Origin: a virus
Lineage: Duplodnaviria; Heunggongvirae; Uroviricota; Caudoviricetes
DNA length: 51,197 nt
Direction: 5' to 3' (one strand)
IMG/VR virus record: IMGVR_UViG_3300005323_000039
Coordinates: 64,001-115,197 of that record
In this document: positions 4,531 through 49,998 of the stretch, piece by piece
How the letters are laid out: the number at the start of each line of letters is the position of its first letter
Numbering within the stretch: position 1 is the first letter of the stretch
Position numbers and translations under genes: made by a program
The notes under the pieces: generated by a model
Told to the model about the DNA's origin: nothing
The model's database searches: none
What the model saw: the letters and a program-made list of their open reading frames with translations, nothing else

Positions 4531-4603
4531 TGCGCTCGGAGAGATTCGAACTCTCGCCACCTGCTCGGCAAGCAGATATTCTACCAGACTATATTACGAG
4601 CGC
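4531..4603 (-). tRNA. tRNA-Gly(GCC)
   Basis: Acceptor GCGCTCG/CGAGCGC-A, anticodon arm TCTGC-TTGCCGA-GCAGG, T-arm GAGAG-TTCGAAT-CTCTC; CCA not encoded. Confidence 0.95.
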
Positions 4604-4627
4604 GCCAATTTACGCAAATTCTGTGAA

Positions 4628-4700
4628 TAGTCCTGCGAGGATTCGAACCTCGGTTGCTGAGTTCAAAGCCCAGTGTGATTGACCGCTACACTACAGGACT
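4628..4700 (-). tRNA. tRNA-Gln(TTG), archaeal type
   Basis: AGTCCTG/CAGGACT-A acceptor with A1-U72; anticodon arm CTGGG-CTTTGAA-CTCAG; T-arm CGAGG-TTCGAAT-CCTCG. Confidence 0.95.
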
Positions 4701-4713
4701 AATTGTTGTTAGT

Positions 4714-4929
4714 CTAATCATATAACACGATTGTTTCTACATTATATTTTGATACAAGGATTGTAAATGTCTCAATTGATTTAGTAATAGGATTTTCATA
4801 AGAACGTTCCACGATAAACATATCATGATCATCAATTGTTTTTGACCCTTTGTAAATTCCACATACTTCTTCACCAGATACCAATCCAAAGCAATATGAT
4901 TTTCCCCTTTCTAATTCATCTTTTGTCAT
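4714..4929 (-). CDS. hypothetical protein inside the tRNA cluster
   Basis: 71 aa, GAGGT ribosome-binding site upstream. Confidence 0.6.
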   Translation of the reverse strand: MTKDELERGKSYCFGLVSGEEVCGIYKGSKTIDDHDMFIVERSYENPITKSIETFTILVSKYNVETIVLYD

Positions 4930-4952
4930 GTCGTACCTCTTGTTAAGTTGAA

Positions 4953-5073
4953 AGAGTGGGCCAGATTTGCACTGGTCCGTGTACTTTGTTTTCTACCGTT
5001 TGTTTGAAACAAACGATCTATCACGCCCATGCTGCCTAGCTTTATGGGAATCGAACCCTGGACGCCACCACTC
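4953..5073 (-). ncRNA. tRNA-like RNA (acceptor-like stem and T-arm around a non-tRNA core)
   Basis: GAGTGG/CCACTC closing stem, T-arm CCAG-TGCAAAT-CTGG, internal CCCAT/ATGGG and CGTTTGTT/AACAAACG hairpins; no canonical anticodon arm. Confidence 0.5.
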
Positions 5074-5145
5074 AGCCTTCGTACCACCAGATACAGTCCA
5101 AAAGGGAGCGACCCTTTCATACCTTCGTATCCAATATGTGCGAAA

Positions 5146-5229
5146 TGCCAACAGCAGGGCTCGAACCTGCGACCCTCTACGGGACCAGATCTTGAGTCTG
5201 GCGCGTTCTTCCATCTTCGCTATGTTGGC
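5146..5229 (-). tRNA. tRNA-Leu(CAA)
   Basis: GCCAACA/TGTTGGC-A acceptor, CCAGA-CTCAAGA-TCTGG anticodon arm, long variable arm, T-arm GCAGG-TTCGAGC-CCTGC; BRE-TATA at about 5258-5275. Confidence 0.95.
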
Positions 5230-6297: not shown

Positions 6298-6321
6298 TAC
6301 TAAAAATAAATGGATAGGTTA

Positions 6322-6401
6322 GAACCTTGCCTCACCTCGCCATACCACACCGTATCGAACCTATCCGAACCGAACCCAAACAAACCCAGTCGAACCACAT
6401 C
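6322..6401 (-). ncRNA. stand-alone GGY-NN pentamer array (array A; candidate guide RNA)
   Basis: 16 in-phase 5-nt units, 11 with GGY: gatGT ggtTC gacTG ggtTT gttTG ggtTC ggtTC ggaTA ggtTC gatAC ggtGT ggtAT ggcGA ggtGA ggcAA ggtTC; own promoter and T-tract. Confidence 0.85.
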
Positions 6402-6450
6402 TAATGTGCGTTAAGATATACTCAACGCTAATTCGTAATGGTATTTTTTC

Positions 6451-6466
6451 TATTTATACTTTTCGG
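6451..6466 (-). promoter_or_regulatory. archaeal BRE-TATA promoter for array A
   Basis: CCGAAAAGTATAAATA; no sizeable minus-strand ORF between it and the array. Confidence 0.7.
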
Positions 6467-6476
6467 TGGCAACTAG

Positions 6477-7031
6477 ATGACTCTGATAAAATTGACTGCT
6501 TATAATGCATGGCGTCGTGGATTCATAACCGATGACCAATATGAAGTTTATCTTCAGCAAAATCCAGATCCAGAACAAGAAATTATAATAAATTACGATG
6601 AACATTTGCACGAAGTTTATCTTGCTGACGTACATGTGCTCAAACGAGATCCTAATGCTTATATCGACTTAGTTTTTTCACTTGACGGAGCTGGTGCAGA
6701 AATAGCTGACGCAAAGAAAGCATATGCCAGATGTAACGTTAGTGGTAGGATTATTAAAGCAACTGTTCTAGCGGATCAATCAGGTTCAATCGCAATTGAT
6801 GTCTGGAAGAAGACTACATATCCTCCAGCGGATGGCGAATCAATTACAGCAAGCGCCGTTCCAACAATCACAACCAACGTTAGTTCAGAGGATGCAACAT
6901 TGACAGGCTGGAACGTAATGGTCACAGCTGGAGATTACTTCATTGCTAACGTCGATTCTTGTACAACAATAACACATGCTGAACTCATTCTAACGATTGA
7001 ACCTGCTGTACAATATGTCCGGATCGTTTAG
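6477..7031 (+). CDS. virion protein (N-terminal RRGxIT module plus beta-sandwich)
   Basis: C-terminal domain paralogous to 7046-7864 (ADQSGSI..D.WK...YPP....SITA.AVPTI). Confidence 0.65.
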   Translation: MTLIKLTAYNAWRRGFITDDQYEVYLQQNPDPEQEIIINYDEHLHEVYLADVHVLKRDPNAYIDLVFSLDGAGAEIADAKKAYARCNVSGRIIKATVLADQSGSIAIDVWKKTTYPPADGESITASAVPTITTNVSSEDATLTGWNVMVTAGDYFIANVDSCTTITHAELILTIEPAVQYVRIV

Positions 7032-10209: not shown

Positions 10210-11826
10210 ATGACAGAAAAGATTTTAAATATTTCTGGACACGACGTATCAATAGACGAAAATTTTTCTAAAATATTAAACGCGTATAATTGGCACGTGT
10301 ATTCTCTTGGTACAGGTAAGAGAAAAGAGTATGCAGTGACAAAAGTTTTTGGCGTTACTGTATATATGCATCGTGTCATAATGGAAGAACATCTTGGTCG
10401 AAAGTTAGATCGTTCCGAAGAAATTGATCATATCGATGGAAATAGTCTAAACAACACAATAAAAAATTTACGTGTGTGTTCGCATAAAGAAAATACTTGC
10501 AACAAAAGTAAATTTTCTACATCGTCGTCAGAATATATGGGTGTTTATTACAATGATGCTTATGATGACCCATATCGTGCAAAAATAATGAAAGATGGAG
10601 AAAACATACACATAGGTGGGTTCAAAACACCAAAAGAAGCTGCCGAAGCTCGCGACATAGCATGCCTTATTCATTTTGGACAATTTGCTTGCCTCAATTT
10701 TGAACATGCACGTTCCGAATATTTACAGAAAATTAACGATGGATACAACCCGATACAACCAGCACGTGAAACAACGAGTAAATATAGGGGAGTTAGTCTG
10801 CAGGAAGGCAAGTGGGTTGCACGTGCAAACAACATTTATTTGGGAGTGTTTGATTCAGAGGAGTCGGCAGCAGCCCAACACGATTTAGCATACTTATATA
10901 TTAATGGAGATGTTAAAGAAGGCTTAAATTTTCCAGATAAAACGCCGCAATACATAAAGATGCTGGCGTCTGGCGTGATTCCTGTTCCAGAAAAACAATT
11001 ACCATCCACTGAATATATTGGTGTATCGTATAATAAGGATGCGTGTAAATTTGCTGCTTATGTTGGTAGCGGCGAAAATCGTGTATATTTGGGAATGTTT
11101 AGCACGGCAAAAGACGCAGCTGAAACACGTGATATGGCTGTAATCAAGCTTGGGATTAAGTCTGTTCTAAATTTTGTATCCAAAGAACGTGAATATAGAG
11201 AGAAATTGCGCAACGGATACAATCCAATACCCATTAAAGTTCCTAAATCTAGTAAATATGTTGGAGTTTGTTATACAGAAGGTTCGGATAAATGGATTGC
11301 GTACACACCCTTACCTAACGGAAAGCGTTTCAATATTGGTGCATTTGAAACAGAAGATGCTGCATATGAAGCATTATGTGACACAGAGAGACGTTTGACA
11401 CAATGGGAATATATCACAGATATTAAGCCACGTTCGAATTATCGTGGCGTCAAGAATCAACCTAACGGAAAATTTAACGCAGGCATTTATCACAATGGCG
11501 TGGATTATTCGTTAGGTTCGTACGTAACACCTGAAGAAGCGGCTCAAACATACGATATAGCAGTAATATATTTAGGTGCTGAACACTGGAAGCTCAACTT
11601 TCCAAACCTCACGAACGAATATCGCGCAAAATTGCAATCAGGCTACGTTCCGATTAAAGAAAAACGCACCAAGTCAAGCAAACACAAAGGCGTATCATAC
11701 CGAAAGGATAAGAAACGGTGGCACGCCTACACTCAAGTCGATGGCAAGCGCAAAAACCTTGGGTACTTTGGAACTGAACAAGAAGCAATCCAAGCATATG
11801 ATAAATATATAACAAACCAAAGTTAA
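10210..11826 (+). CDS. HNH homing endonuclease with six tandem AP2 domains
   Basis: MHRVIM...IDHIDGNSLNN..KNLR HNH; six S.Y.GV...W/F.A...LG.F.T.EEAA..D repeats. Confidence 0.9.
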   Translation: MTEKILNISGHDVSIDENFSKILNAYNWHVYSLGTGKRKEYAVTKVFGVTVYMHRVIMEEHLGRKLDRSEEIDHIDGNSLNNTIKNLRVCSHKENTCNKSKFSTSSSEYMGVYYNDAYDDPYRAKIMKDGENIHIGGFKTPKEAAEARDIACLIHFGQFACLNFEHARSEYLQKINDGYNPIQPARETTSKYRGVSLQEGKWVARANNIYLGVFDSEESAAAQHDLAYLYINGDVKEGLNFPDKTPQYIKMLASGVIPVPEKQLPSTEYIGVSYNKDACKFAAYVGSGENRVYLGMFSTAKDAAETRDMAVIKLGIKSVLNFVSKEREYREKLRNGYNPIPIKVPKSSKYVGVCYTEGSDKWIAYTPLPNGKRFNIGAFETEDAAYEALCDTERRLTQWEYITDIKPRSNYRGVKNQPNGKFNAGIYHNGVDYSLGSYVTPEEAAQTYDIAVIYLGAEHWKLNFPNLTNEYRAKLQSGYVPIKEKRTKSSKHKGVSYRKDKKRWHAYTQVDGKRKNLGYFGTEQEAIQAYDKYITNQS

Positions 11827-24725: not shown

Positions 24726-24743
24726 ACAAAAAACAATAGATCA

Positions 24744-24776
24744 TTGGAGCAAGTAACACTACGTTATTTGCCCCAA
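24744..24776 (-). terminator. 14-bp hairpin plus T-tract ending the GAT-array transcript
   Basis: TTGGGGCAAATAAC-gtagt-GTTACTTGCTCCAA followed by TATTGTTTTTTGTTT on the minus strand. Confidence 0.65.
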
Positions 24777-24781
24777 TATAT

Positions 24782-24841
24782 ATATCAAATTTCATCGTAT
24801 CCCGACGTATCTGATCCCATCTTATCTAATCAGAACGCATG
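24782..24841 (-). ncRNA. GAT-NN pentamer array C2
   Basis: 12 units, 8 GAT: catGC gttCT gatTA gatAA gatGG gatCA gatAC gtcGG gatAC gatGA aatTT gatAT. Confidence 0.8.
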
Positions 24842-24901
24842 ACTCCACTACTCGGAGTCTAAGTTGGATATGAGGTATGAATTCAATATCCAACACACTG
24901 C

Positions 24902-24966
24902 GCATCGCATCAAATTATATCCCATCTTATCTAATCAAATCACGTTTCATCTCATCTCGTCGCATA
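24902..24966 (-). ncRNA. GAT-NN pentamer array C1
   Basis: 13 units, 9 GAT: tatGC gacGA gatGA gatGA aacGT gatTT gatTA gatAA gatGG gatAT aatTT gatGC gatGC. Confidence 0.8.
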
Positions 24967-24983
24967 AATGTCAAATATTAAAT

Positions 24984-25253
24984 TTATTCCTCGATGATTT
25001 CTCCATACCATTCTTTGGGCGCTTTTGATCGTAACTCACTATAAAAGTTTGTAAGATCGGCACGAATTTGCTTTAATACAACAGATGTCAATTGTTCGAT
25101 AATGCCTGGTATATTATGATCATCTGTTACATGTTCTTCGTATATGTTGGTCAATTCTTCTATTTTGAGACCAATTTCACGCAATTTTGATAATTCATCT
25201 CGACTTATTTCAATACTGGATGTCATTGTAACACCTGAAATATGAGCAATCAA
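24984..25253 (-). CDS. small helical accessory protein of the RAMP operon
   Basis: 89 aa, translationally coupled to 25254-25757. Confidence 0.6.
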   Translation of the reverse strand: MIAHISGVTMTSSIEISRDELSKLREIGLKIEELTNIYEEHVTDDHNIPGIIEQLTSVVLKQIRADLTNFYSELRSKAPKEWYGEIIEE

Positions 25254-25757
25254 TCATTCGAATTTTGGTTTAATTGGTACTGAACTTACACCACTTTCAT
25301 GTCTACCAGACTTAGGAGATCGTAATGAATCGTACATTGTTTTTACAGTTCCAAGCATTCCACGTCTGACAGACAACTGTGCTCTGTCGGATTCCGGCAT
25401 CAAGTGTTCGATTCTGGACGCAATATTGCACGCTCTGAATCCTCTATCAGCGGCTCTGGCTGCCCTTGACCATTTGTTGTTTACGATGATTGTGGCATTT
25501 TTGCCACCAATCAATTCTATGCCATCTCCTTTGTAGCAATGATACTCGATTTCCATTTTGTACAATACACGACGCATTAAATCTTTTCCATCAGTATCCA
25601 TAACGATTTCAGTGTCGTTTTCGATTTGCTTGTACGATAGGAATTTGCCCATAGGCTTATCTGAAAAATATGTATGGAGTTTGACGTATTCCGCTGAAGG
25701 CATACGTCCTTTGCTCGTTTTTGATTTTTTAGATTTGGTCACTTTTTCACCAACCAA
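25254..25757 (-). CDS. basic accessory protein, possible winged-helix DNA binder
   Basis: Overlaps the RAMP gene stop; GKFLSYKQIENDT...LMRRVL..MEIEY.C..G.GIEL pattern. Confidence 0.55.
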   Translation of the reverse strand: MVGEKVTKSKKSKTSKGRMPSAEYVKLHTYFSDKPMGKFLSYKQIENDTEIVMDTDGKDLMRRVLYKMEIEYHCYKGDGIELIGGKNATIIVNNKWSRAARAADRGFRACNIASRIEHLMPESDRAQLSVRRGMLGTVKTMYDSLRSPKSGRHESGVSSVPIKPKFE

Positions 25758-26302
25758 TTAACGTTTTTGACAGAGAATCTTCCGAACCATCCACGTCTTT
25801 CTGGTCGAAACATTCCAATTCCAATAAACATACCACTAGTTTTGAGATGTTCGATGAAAACATCGCGTGTTATGACTTCATCGAATATGTTGTAGCGAAC
25901 TGTACCTTGCCATTTATCCACAACAGGAAAACATCTATATACTCGGGTGCTTCCACCGACCTTACCATCTGCAGGTACATAAAGCCAATTTGGACGCAAT
26001 CCATCCTTTTTCATGGGAAGTACCAGAGGATCTACGACCATTATTGCTGCATCGAACTTCTTCTTGAATGTTTTGTTTCGCTCACCGGGAACCTTCTTGC
26101 TCATGTATCCTGCAGCACCTTTGATCGAATTAGAAAACATTTCGGGTGGTATTATTACATTACCGTCGGAATCGTAGTGTGCACGATCTTGCCAATGAGT
26201 TTGTTCCCACTCTTCGAATGGCTTTGTTGCGTTCCCTGCATATTTTCCAAACTGCAAAGGTGTTGTACCTTCCAACAAACATTCAGCTATTATTTCTATC
26301 AT
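25739..26302 (-). CDS. Cas7/RAMP-like protein 2 (Vipr-like), linked to GAT-NN arrays
   Basis: N-terminal LEGTTPL strand, VIIPPEMFSNSIKGAA helix, C-terminal Gly loop GMFIGIGMFRPERRGWFGRFSV; alignable to 32831-33397. Confidence 0.75.
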   Translation of the reverse strand: MIEIIAECLLEGTTPLQFGKYAGNATKPFEEWEQTHWQDRAHYDSDGNVIIPPEMFSNSIKGAAGYMSKKVPGERNKTFKKKFDAAIMVVDPLVLPMKKDGLRPNWLYVPADGKVGGSTRVYRCFPVVDKWQGTVRYNIFDEVITRDVFIEHLKTSGMFIGIGMFRPERRGWFGRFSVKNVNWLVKK

Positions 26303-26313
26303 GTAAATACCTC

Positions 26314-26388
26314 ATGTCTTGACTCAAATGGTCGTATCGCATCCAATCAAATCCAATTCTATCATATCGCATTTTATATGATCGCATC
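26314..26388 (-). ncRNA. GAT-NN pentamer array D in the leader of RAMP gene 2
   Basis: 12 core units (8 GAT) gatGC gatCA tatAA aatGC gatAT gatAG aatTG gatTT gatTG gatGC gatAC gacCA plus 3 degenerate units ending at the GAGGT ribosome-binding site. Confidence 0.8.
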
Positions 26389-26444
26389 TTAATTGTATTT
26401 TGCACTACGTTTTGATTGTAGGCATTACGCTTTAACGTTATATT

Positions 26445-26463
26445 AATATATATAGGTTTTGGT
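26445..26463 (-). promoter_or_regulatory. BRE-TATA promoter of the array D/RAMP2 operon
   Basis: ACCAAAACCTATATATTAA on the minus strand. Confidence 0.65.
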
Positions 26464-32830: not shown

Positions 32831-33397
32831 GTGATTTTGTTGAACACCCTTTCGAAACGTTTTAATGTAGGAATTCGCGGCACGCGCCCTCTTGTCATGC
32901 ATTCAACTCGCGTTATGATGCAAGAGAAATCTGGTCGCGGCGACAGAATGACTGCAGAACAAGAAGTTGAATTATCCTTGTATAAGGATTCATCTGGTAG
33001 TATAGTTGTTCCATCTGAATGCATATTGGCGTGTATGAAAGCTGCAGCAAGTGACTACAAAGTTCCTGGCAAAGGCAAAAAGACATTCAAACAATACACT
33101 GATTCAGGACTCGATATCGAACCAACGATGCCAATTCTTCAATCAGACGGATACGTAACGGATTTGCGTCCTGTTGTCGTACAGAAATCCAGAATTATAA
33201 GAGCTCGCCCCAAATTCGAAAATTGGTCTGTGGAATTTACAATCGTTGTAAATGATTCACTTTGGTTAGACAGCAGTGGTGGTGGCAGAGTTATACGCGA
33301 AATACTGGAATCTGCCGGAAAGTACAAAGGCTTGTTAGAAATGAGACCAAGATTTGGTCGTTTTGAAGTCACAAAATTCGAAGAATCTCCCGACTAA
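32831..33397 (+). CDS. Cas7/RAMP-like protein 1 (Vipr-like), linked to GGY-NN arrays
   Basis: IRGTRPLVMH, LYKDSSG.IVVPSECILACMKAAA, VPGKGKKTFK, RIIRARPKF.NW, AGKYKGLLEMRPRFGRFEV Gly loop; BRE-TATA at about 32792-32808. Confidence 0.8.
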   Translation: MILLNTLSKRFNVGIRGTRPLVMHSTRVMMQEKSGRGDRMTAEQEVELSLYKDSSGSIVVPSECILACMKAAASDYKVPGKGKKTFKQYTDSGLDIEPTMPILQSDGYVTDLRPVVVQKSRIIRARPKFENWSVEFTIVVNDSLWLDSSGGGRVIREILESAGKYKGLLEMRPRFGRFEVTKFEESPD

Positions 33398-33415
33398 AGG
33401 AGATCTAATCATTCT

Positions 33416-33440
33416 GGTTCGGTTTGGTAAGGTATGGCTT
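33416..33440 (+). repeat. short GGY-NN array B0 (5 units)
   Basis: ggtTC ggtTT ggtAA ggtAT ggcTT, 18 nt after the RAMP stop; contains the ATG of the next ORF. Confidence 0.8.
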
Positions 33441-33748
33441 CATTAGTCAGATGTTGTGAACCGACATCTCTAGAATTGATTGTTCGCGAGGCATTGAAGT
33501 CTCGCAACATTCAATTTTTGGAGCAAGTTCCCACGAGGTCTGGATTTGTGTTAGATTTTCTTGTTGGAGAACATCTAGTGATTGAAGTTGACGGTCCTTG
33601 CCATGACAGTAGCAAGAGTCGAAAAAGGGATCGTTTTAGAGATAGAATTTTGCGAAACGAAGGATATAAAGTATACAGAATGAATTATTCCACCATAAAC
33701 AATACTCAAAACTTTAATTCAACGTTAGATTTTATCCTCTCTGCATAA
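33434..33748 (+). CDS. DUF559/Vsr-like (EDxHD-type) endonuclease
   Basis: LE.IV..AL....I.F.EQ...GF.LDFL....LVIEVDGPCH...RD..RD..L...GY.V.R. Confidence 0.85.
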   Translation: MASLVRCCEPTSLELIVREALKSRNIQFLEQVPTRSGFVLDFLVGEHLVIEVDGPCHDSSKSRKRDRFRDRILRNEGYKVYRMNYSTINNTQNFNSTLDFILSA

Positions 33749-33759
33749 GAGAGATATCC

Positions 33760-33846
33760 GGTACGTTGCGGCGTGGTAGGTTGGGGTTTGGTATGGTGAG
33801 GTTCGGTGTGTTTCGGTTCGGTGTGGTAGGGTTTTAATATAACCTT
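33760..33846 (+). ncRNA. GGY-NN pentamer array B with terminal hairpin (candidate guide RNA)
   Basis: 15 units, 12 GGY: ggtAC gttGC ggcGT ggtAG gttGG ggtTT ggtAT ggtGA ggtTC ggtGT gttTC ggtTC ggtGT ggtAG ggtTT; hairpin AGGGTT/AACCTT then T-tract. Confidence 0.88.
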
Positions 33847-33901
33847 CGTTTTCCTTTTTTCTCATATTTATTTCATTCAAATTCATTTAGGAGGATTATT
33901 T

Positions 33902-35320
33902 TTGGACATAAGATCCATCGAAACGATAAAAAATGAATTAAAAAGTTATCAAATGAGTCATCATATACGGCTGAGAGATTACAACCCTCTGAGTGTTTTG
34001 TCAGTTCTCAATGAAACGCTGGCAATACAGATTCAACTACTCGAAGAGTCCATCGATTCTGAAGTTCAATCGATAAATCCGTTGACGGCGACCGGCGAGA
34101 ATCTTGACGCCGTGATAATTGACAGACTACCCGCAGGCAGACAAGCAGGCACTCAAGCGGTCGGAACAATTACCTTCCGACGGAATTTGCCCGCAGCCGC
34201 TGTCGTGACTATTCCTACAGGTACGCAGGCCATCGCACTAGCAGACAACGGAGATTATTTGTGGTTCGAAACAACTGCTGTAGGCTCTATAGGAATAGGC
34301 GATAGTAGTGTTGTAGTGGCTGCACGCTCAATGCGTACAGGATTGAATGGCAACATTCCCGCATATTCTATCACTAGATTACCAGTGAGTATTGATGGCG
34401 TGGATTTTGTGGAAAATATTGCCAGCTATACAGGAGGCACAGATGAAGAATCCGATGATGATTTACGTGCAAGATATATATACGCTGTGCTTGTGCCTGG
34501 CCGAGCCACCCAACAACTGATCGAACAACATCTAACGGATTTGGAAACTGTACTTGAAGCCCACACATATACGCGAGCTCCAGGGGACGTTGAAATTGTT
34601 GTAGACACGACTACAGGCATTGGTTCAACTGATACGGATGTTGCTGCATGTATTGAAGAAAATATTGCGGCGGGAGTAGTTGCACGTGGTGTATTGGGCG
34701 CAAGTATATCTGGCGGAATTAATGTAGAATTGTCCGTATGTGCCGGAGGATTTTTATACGTTAGGCCAACCGTTCATATTCTAGCCGAAGAATCAATGAC
34801 AATAACTTATACAGATCACCTAGCACGGTCGCGTACAGGAACGTGTACTATTCCAGCGGGAACGATTGCAGGAAGTGCTGTAATCGCTACACTACAAGAC
34901 CCGAATGATAGAGTTGTCGAAATAAATGGAATATCCTACGTCGGGACTTCAACATACGATTTGCTCATGGGCATGGGAACATATCCTTGCTTGTACGTCA
35001 CTCCACGCATGGTATCAACAAATGTTACTGTTGCAATTGTTGATACTGCAACGCCAGAAGTTGGTCTTGCTGCTAACATAGAATCCTCTCTAACAGATTT
35101 TCTAGATGCTTATACCATTGGCGAAGATTTAGAGTATAGTGACCTCGTAAAATATATTTTTGTCGATTATGCTACAGGCAGAGCATTTGATGGCATTGAT
35201 CAGATAACTTCATGCGTCGTGACAGGCAACAGCACAACGATAAGTTCGTTCGGCCAGATTATCAATTTGGACGAAGATCAGCGCATCGAGCCTGGCAGCA
35301 TCACGATAACAATAACATAG
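33902..35320 (+). CDS. baseplate J/gp47-like protein
   Basis: ATGENLD, AGTQAVG.ITF, TG..GNIPA, GG.DEESDDDLRARY motifs. Confidence 0.92.
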   Translation: MDIRSIETIKNELKSYQMSHHIRLRDYNPLSVLSVLNETLAIQIQLLEESIDSEVQSINPLTATGENLDAVIIDRLPAGRQAGTQAVGTITFRRNLPAAAVVTIPTGTQAIALADNGDYLWFETTAVGSIGIGDSSVVVAARSMRTGLNGNIPAYSITRLPVSIDGVDFVENIASYTGGTDEESDDDLRARYIYAVLVPGRATQQLIEQHLTDLETVLEAHTYTRAPGDVEIVVDTTTGIGSTDTDVAACIEENIAAGVVARGVLGASISGGINVELSVCAGGFLYVRPTVHILAEESMTITYTDHLARSRTGTCTIPAGTIAGSAVIATLQDPNDRVVEINGISYVGTSTYDLLMGMGTYPCLYVTPRMVSTNVTVAIVDTATPEVGLAANIESSLTDFLDAYTIGEDLEYSDLVKYIFVDYATGRAFDGIDQITSCVVTGNSTTISSFGQIINLDEDQRIEPGSITITIT

Positions 35321-47709: not shown

Positions 47710-49998
47710 TTGGCGTGGGCACGATTTTTTAGGAGAAAACATTACATGACTTTGCCTTACGTTAAAACCTCTGACGAACATACGTTGCCATGGGATCGAA
47801 ACGCAATTATATCAGAACTCATGAAAGATGTAGATTTTGCGCGTCATTTTTATCCTGCGATCAATTTCACACTAGAGGACGCGAAAAACGTTGCGAAACG
47901 TGCAGAACACCAAGTGATCAAGCTTGGAGAAGATCCAATTAGCTCTGACACAATACGAGGAATTGTCACTTCGATCCTTGTAAAGGACGGCCAATGTGAA
48001 TTGGCTAAAGCTGCGTCACGCGTTGGGATGCCTGCAAGGGAATTTTACGATGTAATAAAAGGAGGTTCTGATTATGACAACGCAAACTTAACACCATCTC
48101 CAGAGACATCCCATAAGATTGTAGCAGACAAGACCTCGAAAAATTGGTACAATCGAATGCTACCAAAAGAGTTAATTGAGAAACATTTATCAGGCGACCT
48201 TCATATTCACGACGAAGAGTACTTTGGGACTAGACCATTCTGTAAATCATGGGACCTTCGATACACTTTTTACTATGGGTTTAAGCCAGACGGCACAGGA
48301 CTTCAAGCGGTGGCAGCTGGCCCTGCCCAACATGCAACCGTTGCTATTTTGCAAGCAACAAAAGTAATGGGAATGGGACAAACTCAGAATTCCGGAGGAC
48401 AAGGATTGCTCCATGGCACAGTTTTCCTCGCTCCTTATATGGAAGGTAAATCTTACGAGGAAATTCATCAATTGTGCCAAATGATGGTGTACGAACTCAA
48501 CCAAATGTATGTATCGAGGGGAGGACAACCCTGCTTCAGCTCGATTAATCTGAATCCTGGAGTTCCTAAAATTCTAGAAAACGCTCCGATAGTATTTAAA
48601 GGCAAAGTGTGGGATGGAACGCATGGTACATCGCGTCGTACATACTCTGAATTTGAACGAGAAGTCCGATTAATGTTTAAAGCTTTTATGGAACTTTCCT
48701 TAAAGGGTGACTACCATGGTAGGTTGTTTCCGTTTCCGAAGGTAGAAGTAGCAATTGAAAAAAAGTTTGTTGACGAAGAAACTTGGAGTATTCCTTTAAT
48801 CGATTCCGAGATGACAAAAACTGCCCCTAGCTACAGAGAACTGTATGAAATGGCATTCGAAGTCGTATCTAAATACGGTACACTCTACTTCGATAATATG
48901 TTACCAGAATATCGTAAGGCAGAGGAGTCGGTGGCGTGCATGCAATGCTGTAGTTTTTCGTTTTCAACTTCACGCGACGAGGACTCATTGTTTGAAGATC
49001 GATTAAACTTTCGCAATGGAGAACATTTTGATTTGGGAGGCATGCAAGCTATCAGTATAAATCTCCCACGTCACGCGTACAAATCCGATCATAACGATGA
49101 ACAATTGATTCGGAACATTCTAAAAACAATGGATATCGCTACTGAAATATTCAAAATCAAGCGTCAAATGATAATCAATAATTCTGACAGACTCCAATTC
49201 CTAACGCAAACTCCAATAGACCCCAATACAGGAAAACTTGGATCTAAATACGTTGATTTCGATAACCTTGTGTATGAGATTGGAATTGTTGGACTAAACG
49301 AAATGGTACAATATCACGTAGGCAAAGAGTTACATGAGAGTCGAGATGCGGTTGAATTAGGTAAAAAGGTGCTCCAAGCAATGAGTATATATTGCAAAAC
49401 GTTAAGTAAAGAACACGGTATGAAAATCGTGCTTGCGCGTACACCTGCCGAAACTGTTAGCCAAAGGTTCGCTGTTTCTGACATGTTCCATACTGTGTAT
49501 GATAAAATGGCTACAAACATTGTTAAGGGTGACTATGTCACAGCGATTGGAAATGCTCACTCTACCCGAAATCTTCCAGTGTTCTACTCCAATGGATTTG
49601 CTCCATCAGTTGGAGCAGATATCAGTTTGTTTGAAAGGCTTGCATTGGAAAATGAATTTTGGCCTTTAATTGATGGTGGAGCAATCACCCACATATGGCT
49701 AGGAGAAGAGTCACCAAATCCAGTCGGATTAATGGACTTCGCCATGAACGTATTCAAGCACACGAACATTGGGTATGTGGCCTTCACTAAAGACATGACA
49801 CAGTGTTCCAACTGCAAAAAAATGCTAAATGGCATTCATACTCATTGTGAATCGTGTGGTTCAAACGACTTAGTAATATACTCCAGAATTACAGGATATT
49901 ATTCGGTTGTAGGCACTGTAAAGGATGGAGTAGTTCATGATAAATGGAATGCTGGCAAGATGGCAGAATTGAAGTCCAGAAAAAGGGTTAACCTTTAA
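47710..49998 (+). CDS. nrdD: anaerobic (class III) ribonucleoside-triphosphate reductase, archaeal type (likely start ATG 47746)
   Basis: ATP-cone-like N-terminus, HLSGDLHIHD, MQCC, INLPR, GIVGLNE, TPAE, Zn ribbon, glycyl-radical YSRITGYY. Confidence 0.97.
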   Translation: MAWARFFRRKHYMTLPYVKTSDEHTLPWDRNAIISELMKDVDFARHFYPAINFTLEDAKNVAKRAEHQVIKLGEDPISSDTIRGIVTSILVKDGQCELAKAASRVGMPAREFYDVIKGGSDYDNANLTPSPETSHKIVADKTSKNWYNRMLPKELIEKHLSGDLHIHDEEYFGTRPFCKSWDLRYTFYYGFKPDGTGLQAVAAGPAQHATVAILQATKVMGMGQTQNSGGQGLLHGTVFLAPYMEGKSYEEIHQLCQMMVYELNQMYVSRGGQPCFSSINLNPGVPKILENAPIVFKGKVWDGTHGTSRRTYSEFEREVRLMFKAFMELSLKGDYHGRLFPFPKVEVAIEKKFVDEETWSIPLIDSEMTKTAPSYRELYEMAFEVVSKYGTLYFDNMLPEYRKAEESVACMQCCSFSFSTSRDEDSLFEDRLNFRNGEHFDLGGMQAISINLPRHAYKSDHNDEQLIRNILKTMDIATEIFKIKRQMIINNSDRLQFLTQTPIDPNTGKLGSKYVDFDNLVYEIGIVGLNEMVQYHVGKELHESRDAVELGKKVLQAMSIYCKTLSKEHGMKIVLARTPAETVSQRFAVSDMFHTVYDKMATNIVKGDYVTAIGNAHSTRNLPVFYSNGFAPSVGADISLFERLALENEFWPLIDGGAITHIWLGEESPNPVGLMDFAMNVFKHTNIGYVAFTKDMTQCSNCKKMLNGIHTHCESCGSNDLVIYSRITGYYSVVGTVKDGVVHDKWNAGKMAELKSRKRVNL

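Follow-up and report, generated by a model that had tools for sequence, protein, structure and literature searches.

A compact operon on the minus strand of a viral genome (IMG/VR record IMGVR_UViG_3300005323_000039) can be assigned with high confidence to the VIPR systems, as a member of their non-canonical GAY/NN type; the tailed virus that carries it has a complete genome of 115 kb and probably infects an archaeon. It occupies positions 24728-26456 of the window, by which we mean the whole stretch of 51,197 nucleotides analyzed (64,001 to 115,197 of the record), and consists of three pentamer arrays, D, C1, and C2, placed around a gene for a 187-amino-acid protein (RAMP2) and two small open reading frames (ORFs). 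VIPR was described in April 2026 and its GAC/NN variants in October 2026 (bioRxiv; 10.64898/2026.10.21.760802). In such a system an accessory gene accompanies a RAMP protein, Vipr, and vrRNAs composed of 9-16 GGY/NN units; NN base-pairs with double-stranded DNA while one target base is skipped, and transcription of rival phages and satellites is repressed by the complex (10.64898/2026.04.26.720920). The canonical GGY triplet is not that of the present locus, which falls in the non-canonical or related-consensus class. Since the GAY code has been published before, at least in the form of GAC, the locus is a clean example of a reported variant and not a new kind of system; its added value is a residue-to-triplet map and the evolutionary lability of the switch.

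The assignment follows from the product of the vipr gene (RAMP2; 25739..26302, minus strand), which by profile and AlphaFold2 fold comparisons is a Cas7-like RAMP of the Vipr family, matching the solved SUSP1 Vipr on the one hand and Cas7 and Csm3 on the other. RAMP2 and the other Vipr of the genome, the GGY-type RAMP1, both match phrog_4652, a family of unknown function (RAMP2 E 6.7e-12). As the earlier note on this DNA had maintained, the two proteins can be aligned (29% identity, E 3e-11). A search of 1.8 billion representatives with the family profile recovered 6644 relatives. Compared with PDB entry 36pp chain D, the SUSP1 Vipr protein, the family profile (139 sequences; A3) gave an E of 1.3e-27, and the single sequences gave 1.1e-3 (RAMP2) and 6e-10 (RAMP1); the profile also weakly matches the first, N-terminal Cas7 domain of Cas7-11. 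The AlphaFold2 model of RAMP2 (pLDDT 93.4) has a minimal RAMP fold with one RRM core, a β-hairpin (thumb) at residues 103-128, and a C-terminal glycine-rich loop (G-loop, GIGMFRPERRGWFGRF). Its best solved look-alikes in Foldseek are type VII Cas7 (E 2e-09) and type III Csm3/Cmr4. The extra insertion which had been ascribed to RAMP2 was overstated: its thumb is longer than that of RAMP1 by about 5 residues and exceeds the family mode by 2-3, there is no 12-residue insert, and the WLxVPADGKxGG sequence is a thumb motif conserved in the subclade.

All three arrays are periodic at 5 nt in a single register and are co-oriented with the vipr gene. Array D (26329..26388) lies in the 5′ leader of vipr and contains 12 GAY/NN units; C1 (24902..24966) has 13 units, nine of them GAT, and C2 (24782..24831) has 10, eight of them GAT. 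The 25 GAT triplets counted in the earlier note are correct, the total being 35 core units instead of 37; the remainder are AAT (4), TAT (2), GAC (2), AAC (1), and GTC (1). By position, G1 is present in 28/35 units, A2 in 34/35, and a pyrimidine at position 3 in 35/35 (31 T, 4 C), so that positions 1-3 are fixed at 80-100%, while all four bases are used at positions 4-5. Ten windows have phased GAT in at least five of six units, compared with none in 100 first-order Markov simulations of the window, and D, C1, and C2 are the only GAY arrays in the whole 115-kb genome. C1 and C2 have three consecutive units in common (GATTA GATAA GATGG GAT), the first three dinucleotides of C2 (TA, AA, GG) being those of C1 units 7-9, which suggests that partial duplication of one of the two gave rise to the other. 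In array D the register extends to 26309 through GACAT and GAGGT, the latter being the Shine-Dalgarno sequence of vipr (26309-26328). It may be speculated that a filament growing 3′-ward from array D could mask this ribosome-binding site and provide autoregulation.

Read along the minus strand, the operon proceeds from an AT-rich stretch through array D, three ORFs, C1, and C2 to a hairpin and a T6 run. The earlier note had outlined the same minus-strand order of arrays, RAMP2, and two accessory ORFs, and the arrays have proved to be real and in one register. Its promoter fared less well: a promoter scan of the minus strand found no sigma-70-like site upstream of array D, where there is only the AT-rich, TATA-like stretch (26440..26456, read from the sequence), a possible archaeal-type promoter in view of the archaeal host suggested by the best relative of the baseplate J protein (below). 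The repeat tracts are predicted to be unstructured (array D, z about 0). In the search for a structured, invariant 3′ tail, hairpins were found 3′ of both C1 and C2, and the two tails are unlike each other. That of C1 (24842..24894) comprises two hairpins, 24894-24863 and 24858-24842 (fold -16.3 kcal/mol, z -1.6). That of C2 (24728..24776) is predicted to form a bulged hairpin (24776-24744; -14.4 kcal/mol, z -4.1, 0/200 shuffles as good) followed by the T6 run (24733-24728). The terminal hairpin and T-tract noted earlier are thus partly borne out; the hairpin is real and of 13 rather than 14 bp, but the T6 run lies some 10 nt further on and a simple terminator scan made no call.

One critical question is which residues read the fixed triplet. 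In the cryo-electron microscopy structures of the SUSP1 and Pseudomonas fulva systems, H17 and D177 of SUSP1 Vipr read G1, G2 lies between R138 and W178, and Y3 occupies a pocket with R179 (10.64898/2026.04.26.720927). The equivalent residues of RAMP2 are G19, F125, M164, F165, and R166, respectively. All four that read G1 and G2 have been replaced and only the Y3-stacking Arg is kept, which fits a G-A-Y code; because the pyrimidine is retained and the first G mostly so, we infer that GAY maps onto G1-G2-Y3.

To place this in a wider context, arrays were sought with five RAMP2 relatives from databases (37-44% identity) and at a further 80 viral loci belonging to the same subclade. The subclade carries F or Y in place of the thumb Arg (SUSP1 R138) of the rest of the family, and its IMG/VR contigs (loci L015-L094) use at least nine fixed triplets: GGC, GGT, GTT, GAC, GAT, CGC, CTC, CAC, and AGC. 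The CAC loci form one well-supported clade (100/100), and CGC and CTC units are mixed inside single arrays. The G-loop Arg, found in most of the subclade at the position of SUSP1 D177, is missing from every GAY locus surveyed (RAMP2, L007, L009, L010, L020, L032, L039, L040, L044, and L051), where M, V, S, F, or I replaces it; only two non-GAY loci are without it. This uniform loss supports the residue-triplet map. The five-residue signature alone was rejected as a predictor of the triplet, xFRFR occurring with GGC, GGT, GTT, CGC, CTC, CAC, and AGC. The test proposed in the earlier note, a search for GAT-periodic neighbors of RAMP2 homologs, has come out in its favor: GAT or GAC arrays accompany the same residue signature at L007, L009, L020, L032, L039, L040, L044, and L051. 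L009 (signature G-F-V-F-R), like the present locus, has a 167-residue ORF downstream and GAT/NN arrays upstream of, between, and downstream of the genes. GGC/NN arrays adjoin RAMP1/RAMP2 homologs in Pseudomonas phage LESphi2 and three IMG/VR contigs. At another locus, on a metagenome contig (L006:465-1046), GGC/NN arrays lie inside a called 193-amino-acid gene just upstream of vipr, a call which is probably a spurious ORF over vrRNA arrays.

On a maximum-likelihood tree of Vipr proteins the triplet types are clustered, requiring 18 changes against 39.7 when shuffled, with 0/200 shuffles as low. GAY is not confined to one clade, at least two origins being required by well-supported branches; the number of origins is uncertain in view of the poor resolution of the backbone and the long branch of RAMP2. 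The sister or nearest relative of RAMP2 (L005, 44% identity) uses GGT, which indicates that the switch is labile and needs few changes; these appear to be G-loop Arg/Asp to a hydrophobic residue, thumb Arg to Phe, and β-sheet His/Ser to Gly. The proposition that the triplet code co-evolves with the protein is therefore supported by the clustering, by the loss of the G-loop Arg at GAY loci, and by the replaced G1/G2 readers, although the GGT code of the nearest relative argues against simple inheritance by clade.

The closest described counterparts are the type II VIPR of Escherichia phage SUSP1 and of the P. fulva prophage clade (PDB 36pp). These are likewise virus-borne; they have a homologous Vipr of about 190 residues in which an RRM core, a thumb, and a G-loop are present, vipr and a small accessory gene are preceded by one vrRNA and followed by several, and each guide consists of 10-13 pentamers that combine a fixed triplet with a variable dinucleotide. 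Phage VpaE1 shares the layout of upstream array, vipr, small ORF, and downstream arrays. Unlike SUSP1 and P. fulva, the present locus has GAY in place of GGY, accessory ORFs unrelated in sequence to vap1, a probably archaeal host, and no target that could be found; its tails are simple hairpins with no recognizable conserved pseudoknot, albeit without a dedicated pseudoknot test. By analogy with those two systems, transcription of the three arrays would yield vrRNAs, and each 5-nt unit would be bound by one Vipr protomer, as cryo-electron microscopy has revealed for the solved systems (10.64898/2026.04.26.720927), to give a helical filament along the RNA. Two neighboring protomers would bury G1-A2-Y3 and present the two variable bases for pairing with double-stranded DNA, where one target base would be left out between pairs, and the complex would silence transcription of a competing mobile element, helped by the winged-helix-like ORF (vap). 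The change of the triplet from GGY to GAY is matched by the replacements H17 to G19, R138 to F125, D177 to M164, and W178 to F165, R179 being kept as R166.

In a language-model survey (COMPASS/Evo-PIN), 21 clusters of Vipr-associated arrays are reported, with the non-canonical triplets GAC/NN, CAC/NN, WGT/NN, and TGH/NN appearing in the accessible part of the text (10.64898/2026.10.21.760802). The arrays given there resemble ours in A at position 2, a pyrimidine at position 3, about 10 repeats, and a neighboring Vipr-like fold. They differ in that T dominates position 3 here, in a genome of 41% GC, whereas that part of the text names GAC and not GAT; nor does the paper offer a residue-level rationale or describe two codes in one genome. 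In the three VIPR preprints we came across no reference to VIPR systems that are orthogonal or multiple. RAMP2 also resembles the Cas7 filaments of class 1 CRISPR (type III Csm3/Cmr4 and type VII Cas7) in fold (Foldseek E 2e-09 to 1e-06, TM 0.5-0.6), and the systems have in common one protomer per RNA repeat and a thumb that flips bases at a fixed period. Cas7, however, has a 6-nt period with one flipped base, in contrast to the 5-nt period, three sequestered bases, and discontinuous guide reading of VIPR. Unlike class 1 CRISPR, the virus has no repeat-spacer array (tandem-repeat and Rfam scans) and no Cas6/Cas5 or adaptation genes, the two Vipr genes being its sole Cas-like genes.

The guides of the GAY system are probably not loaded by the GGY-type Vipr of the same virus, nor the reverse, because the residues reading G1 and G2 have been replaced in RAMP2. 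Such separation is plausible given that position 2 is nearly invariant in our arrays and that GGY to GAY guide mutants are among the GGY-motif perturbations which abolish SUSP1 Vipr silencing (10.64898/2026.04.26.720920, fig. S12B legend and main text). It may tentatively be proposed, at somewhat less than even confidence, that the two Viprs are truly orthogonal RNA-loading channels and, from the finding that satellites redirect phage Vipr to decoy sites with solo vrRNAs (10.64898/2026.10.15.759431), that the switch is a recurrent escape from rivals that hijack Vipr with solo decoys. The contrary view, that guides of either triplet, GGY or GAY, are loaded by RAMP1 as well as by RAMP2 and that the two triplets merely record the ancestry of two acquired cassettes, appears unlikely. 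G1 and Y3 are common to both codes, the RAMP1 arrays tolerate GTY units, and a few GGC units in GAY-type arrays and GAC units in GGY-type ones (L010, L017) hint that position 2 is read in a relaxed manner by some Viprs; these points have to be set against A2 in all but one of our units, the replacement of all four reading residues, and the loss of silencing in the SUSP1 guide mutants.

Two further explanations dispense with guides altogether. The arrays might be regulatory binding sites, the protein coating its own leader and 3′ arrays and controlling translation or mRNA stability. The TRAP oligomer reads a (G/U)AG triplet every 5 nt in RNA, a spacing which the fixed triplet recalls, and array D does lie in the 5′ leader with its register running into the GAGGT ribosome-binding site. 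We nevertheless regard this as highly improbable, as the protein is a Vipr/Cas7 homolog with a fold unrelated to that of TRAP, and NN is hypervariable within and between loci, as guides should be, while the spacers of TRAP carry no information and TRAP has no DNA-targeting role. Homologous systems are experimentally established as programmable DNA-targeting complexes, with which autoregulation could coexist. A TRAP-like or CsrA-like regulatory-site interpretation was accordingly dropped after the matches to the solved Vipr and to the Cas7 fold. Less credible still is that the GAT arrays act at the DNA level, as iterons or as a centromere-like or packaging site bound by the winged-helix-like accessory protein. 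The operon does encode a small, possibly DNA-binding ORF, but every array is strand-specific and has the orientation of the gene, hairpins follow C1 and C2 (not D), and this architecture recurs beside the Vipr gene at about 90 loci whose accessory genes are unrelated.

The earlier note's core idea, a RAMP/Cas7-like protein with guide RNAs of fixed triplet and variable dinucleotide, is thus right and corresponds to published VIPR biology. Several observations nonetheless weigh against assigning the locus to VIPR. Array D is predicted to lack a structured tail. No similarity could be detected between the accessory ORFs and either VpaE1 vap1 or the ORFs adjoining other GAY-type vipr genes. The skip rule has been shown for GGY systems only, and the longer thumb of RAMP2 could change it. 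Finally, with a 1-nt skip as the rule, the three GAY guides gave only chance-level matches in the viral, metagenome, and genome collections.

Targets were sought in the virus itself. The three GAY arrays, together with A and B of the GGY type (below), were compared with the whole 115-kb genome at skip lengths 0-3, against 100 shuffled-guide controls, and no self-target exceeded the null (skip 1, p 0.44-0.98); only skip 3 scored, the match being the array itself. In the neighboring genes, too, none of the five arrays had a match that exceeded the null (p 0.37-0.94). The earlier note had proposed a gapped search at these skip lengths and had seen no convincing codon-phased match of the GAT arrays in the window. 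The absence of self-targeting fits guides aimed at other elements. The claims that array B decodes baseplate J and array A a virion gene (33760-34089; 6322-6613) fail the shuffled-guide control, the best full-length NNx matches in neighboring genes being 17/30 for B (p 0.94) and 18/32 for A (p 0.83), with genome-wide p values of 0.44 and 0.53, respectively. When 220 guides from about 90 Vipr loci were compared with those loci, skip 1 was not enriched, and the one 20/22 match was AT-rich and not wobble-phased.

In exact NNx scans with a 1-nt skip, D, C1, and C2 had no match in viral contigs, D and C1 none in metagenome contigs, and D none in genome contigs; C1 had none in any collection searched. 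The scans with C2, which has 20 specified bases, covered viral and genome contigs only, and the latter gave four matches where about one is expected by chance. Three of these (L011-L013) represent a single homologous site, which lies upstream of a bicupin gene, in metagenome-assembled genomes of Lachnospiraceae/Clostridiales, and the fourth (L014:405-433), exact (20/20) and in frame, falls on the HxGxD motif encoded by an M23 peptidase gene of Myxococcota. Their number is at chance level and they were not counted as targets. As a lead only, we mention that C2 read as NNx codons gives Y-N/K-G-H/Q-T-G-T-D/E-F/L-I/M, resembling the HxGxD motif of M23 peptidases; no M23 domain was found in the virus itself.

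Two small ORFs occupy the vap position of the operon. The vap-like ORF (25254..25757, minus strand) encodes 167 amino acids, though probably 149 from M19 at 25703, and has a Lys-rich N-terminus. It had no Pfam, PHROG, or PADLOC match and no homologs beyond its own cluster. Its structural neighbors in the Atlas are viral hypothetical proteins (TM 0.68-0.75) and HTH_11/MarR domains (TM ~0.45), from which its model may be called weakly winged-helix-like. The second ORF (24984..25253, minus strand; 89 aa) has no significant family match.

As a class of RNA-guided DNA-binding systems, VIPR has been known for only some months; it has been proposed to predate CRISPR. The present virus provides a natural example of a complete genome, probably that of an archaeal virus, in which two Vipr proteins differ in their fixed triplet, and it offers a testable map of the triplet-setting residues (RAMP2 positions 19, 125, 164, and 165 versus SUSP1 H17, R138, D177, and W178). 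If the two channels are orthogonal, they would constitute ready-made VIPR pairs for multiplexable programmable repressors, together with a short list of specificity residues, and would bear on the arms race in which satellites redirect phage Vipr with their own vrRNAs.

The genome (115,197 bp) has terminal repeats, is rated complete, and carries three GAY and three GGY arrays. It has exactly two Vipr genes, compared with one in each of five other GAY-type viral records. The GGY-type locus (32831-33834, plus strand) includes RAMP1 (188 aa; signature H-R-E-M-R), a 5-unit GGY array (33416-33445) overlapping the start of a 104-residue DUF559/Vsr-like endonuclease ORF (33434-33748; Pfam E 6e-10), and, 3′ of the latter, the 15-unit array B (33760-33834). 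Nuclease-type accessory genes have been reported mainly for host-borne VIPR types. Array A (6317-6396, minus strand) is a solo GGY/NN array of about 16 units, the nearest Vipr gene being 26 kb away; it resembles the solo vrRNAs described in satellites (10.64898/2026.10.15.759431) and has no self-target above chance.

The tail genes neighboring the GAY operon are tape-measure-like (weak matches), baseplate V-like, and baseplate J. With regard to the supposed insertion of the operon between tape measure and gpU-like genes, the tape measure is weakly supported (PHROG E 0.006-0.01), but the gpU-like label has no hidden Markov model match; a search for relatives of the tail gene downstream, by which the cassette could be tested as an insertion, found none. 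Baseplate J (33902-35320) has its best relative in a Methanosarcinales-assigned virus (BK063673, 41% identity), followed by haloarchaeal tailed viruses. These relatives and an anaerobic ribonucleotide reductase gene (NrdD; 47710-49998) point to a host that is probably archaeal, which, if true, would fit TATA-like promoters and oligo-T termination. The window further contains an HNH-AP2 homing-endonuclease-like ORF (10210-11826) and three tRNA genes (Gly, Gln, and Leu; 4531-5229).

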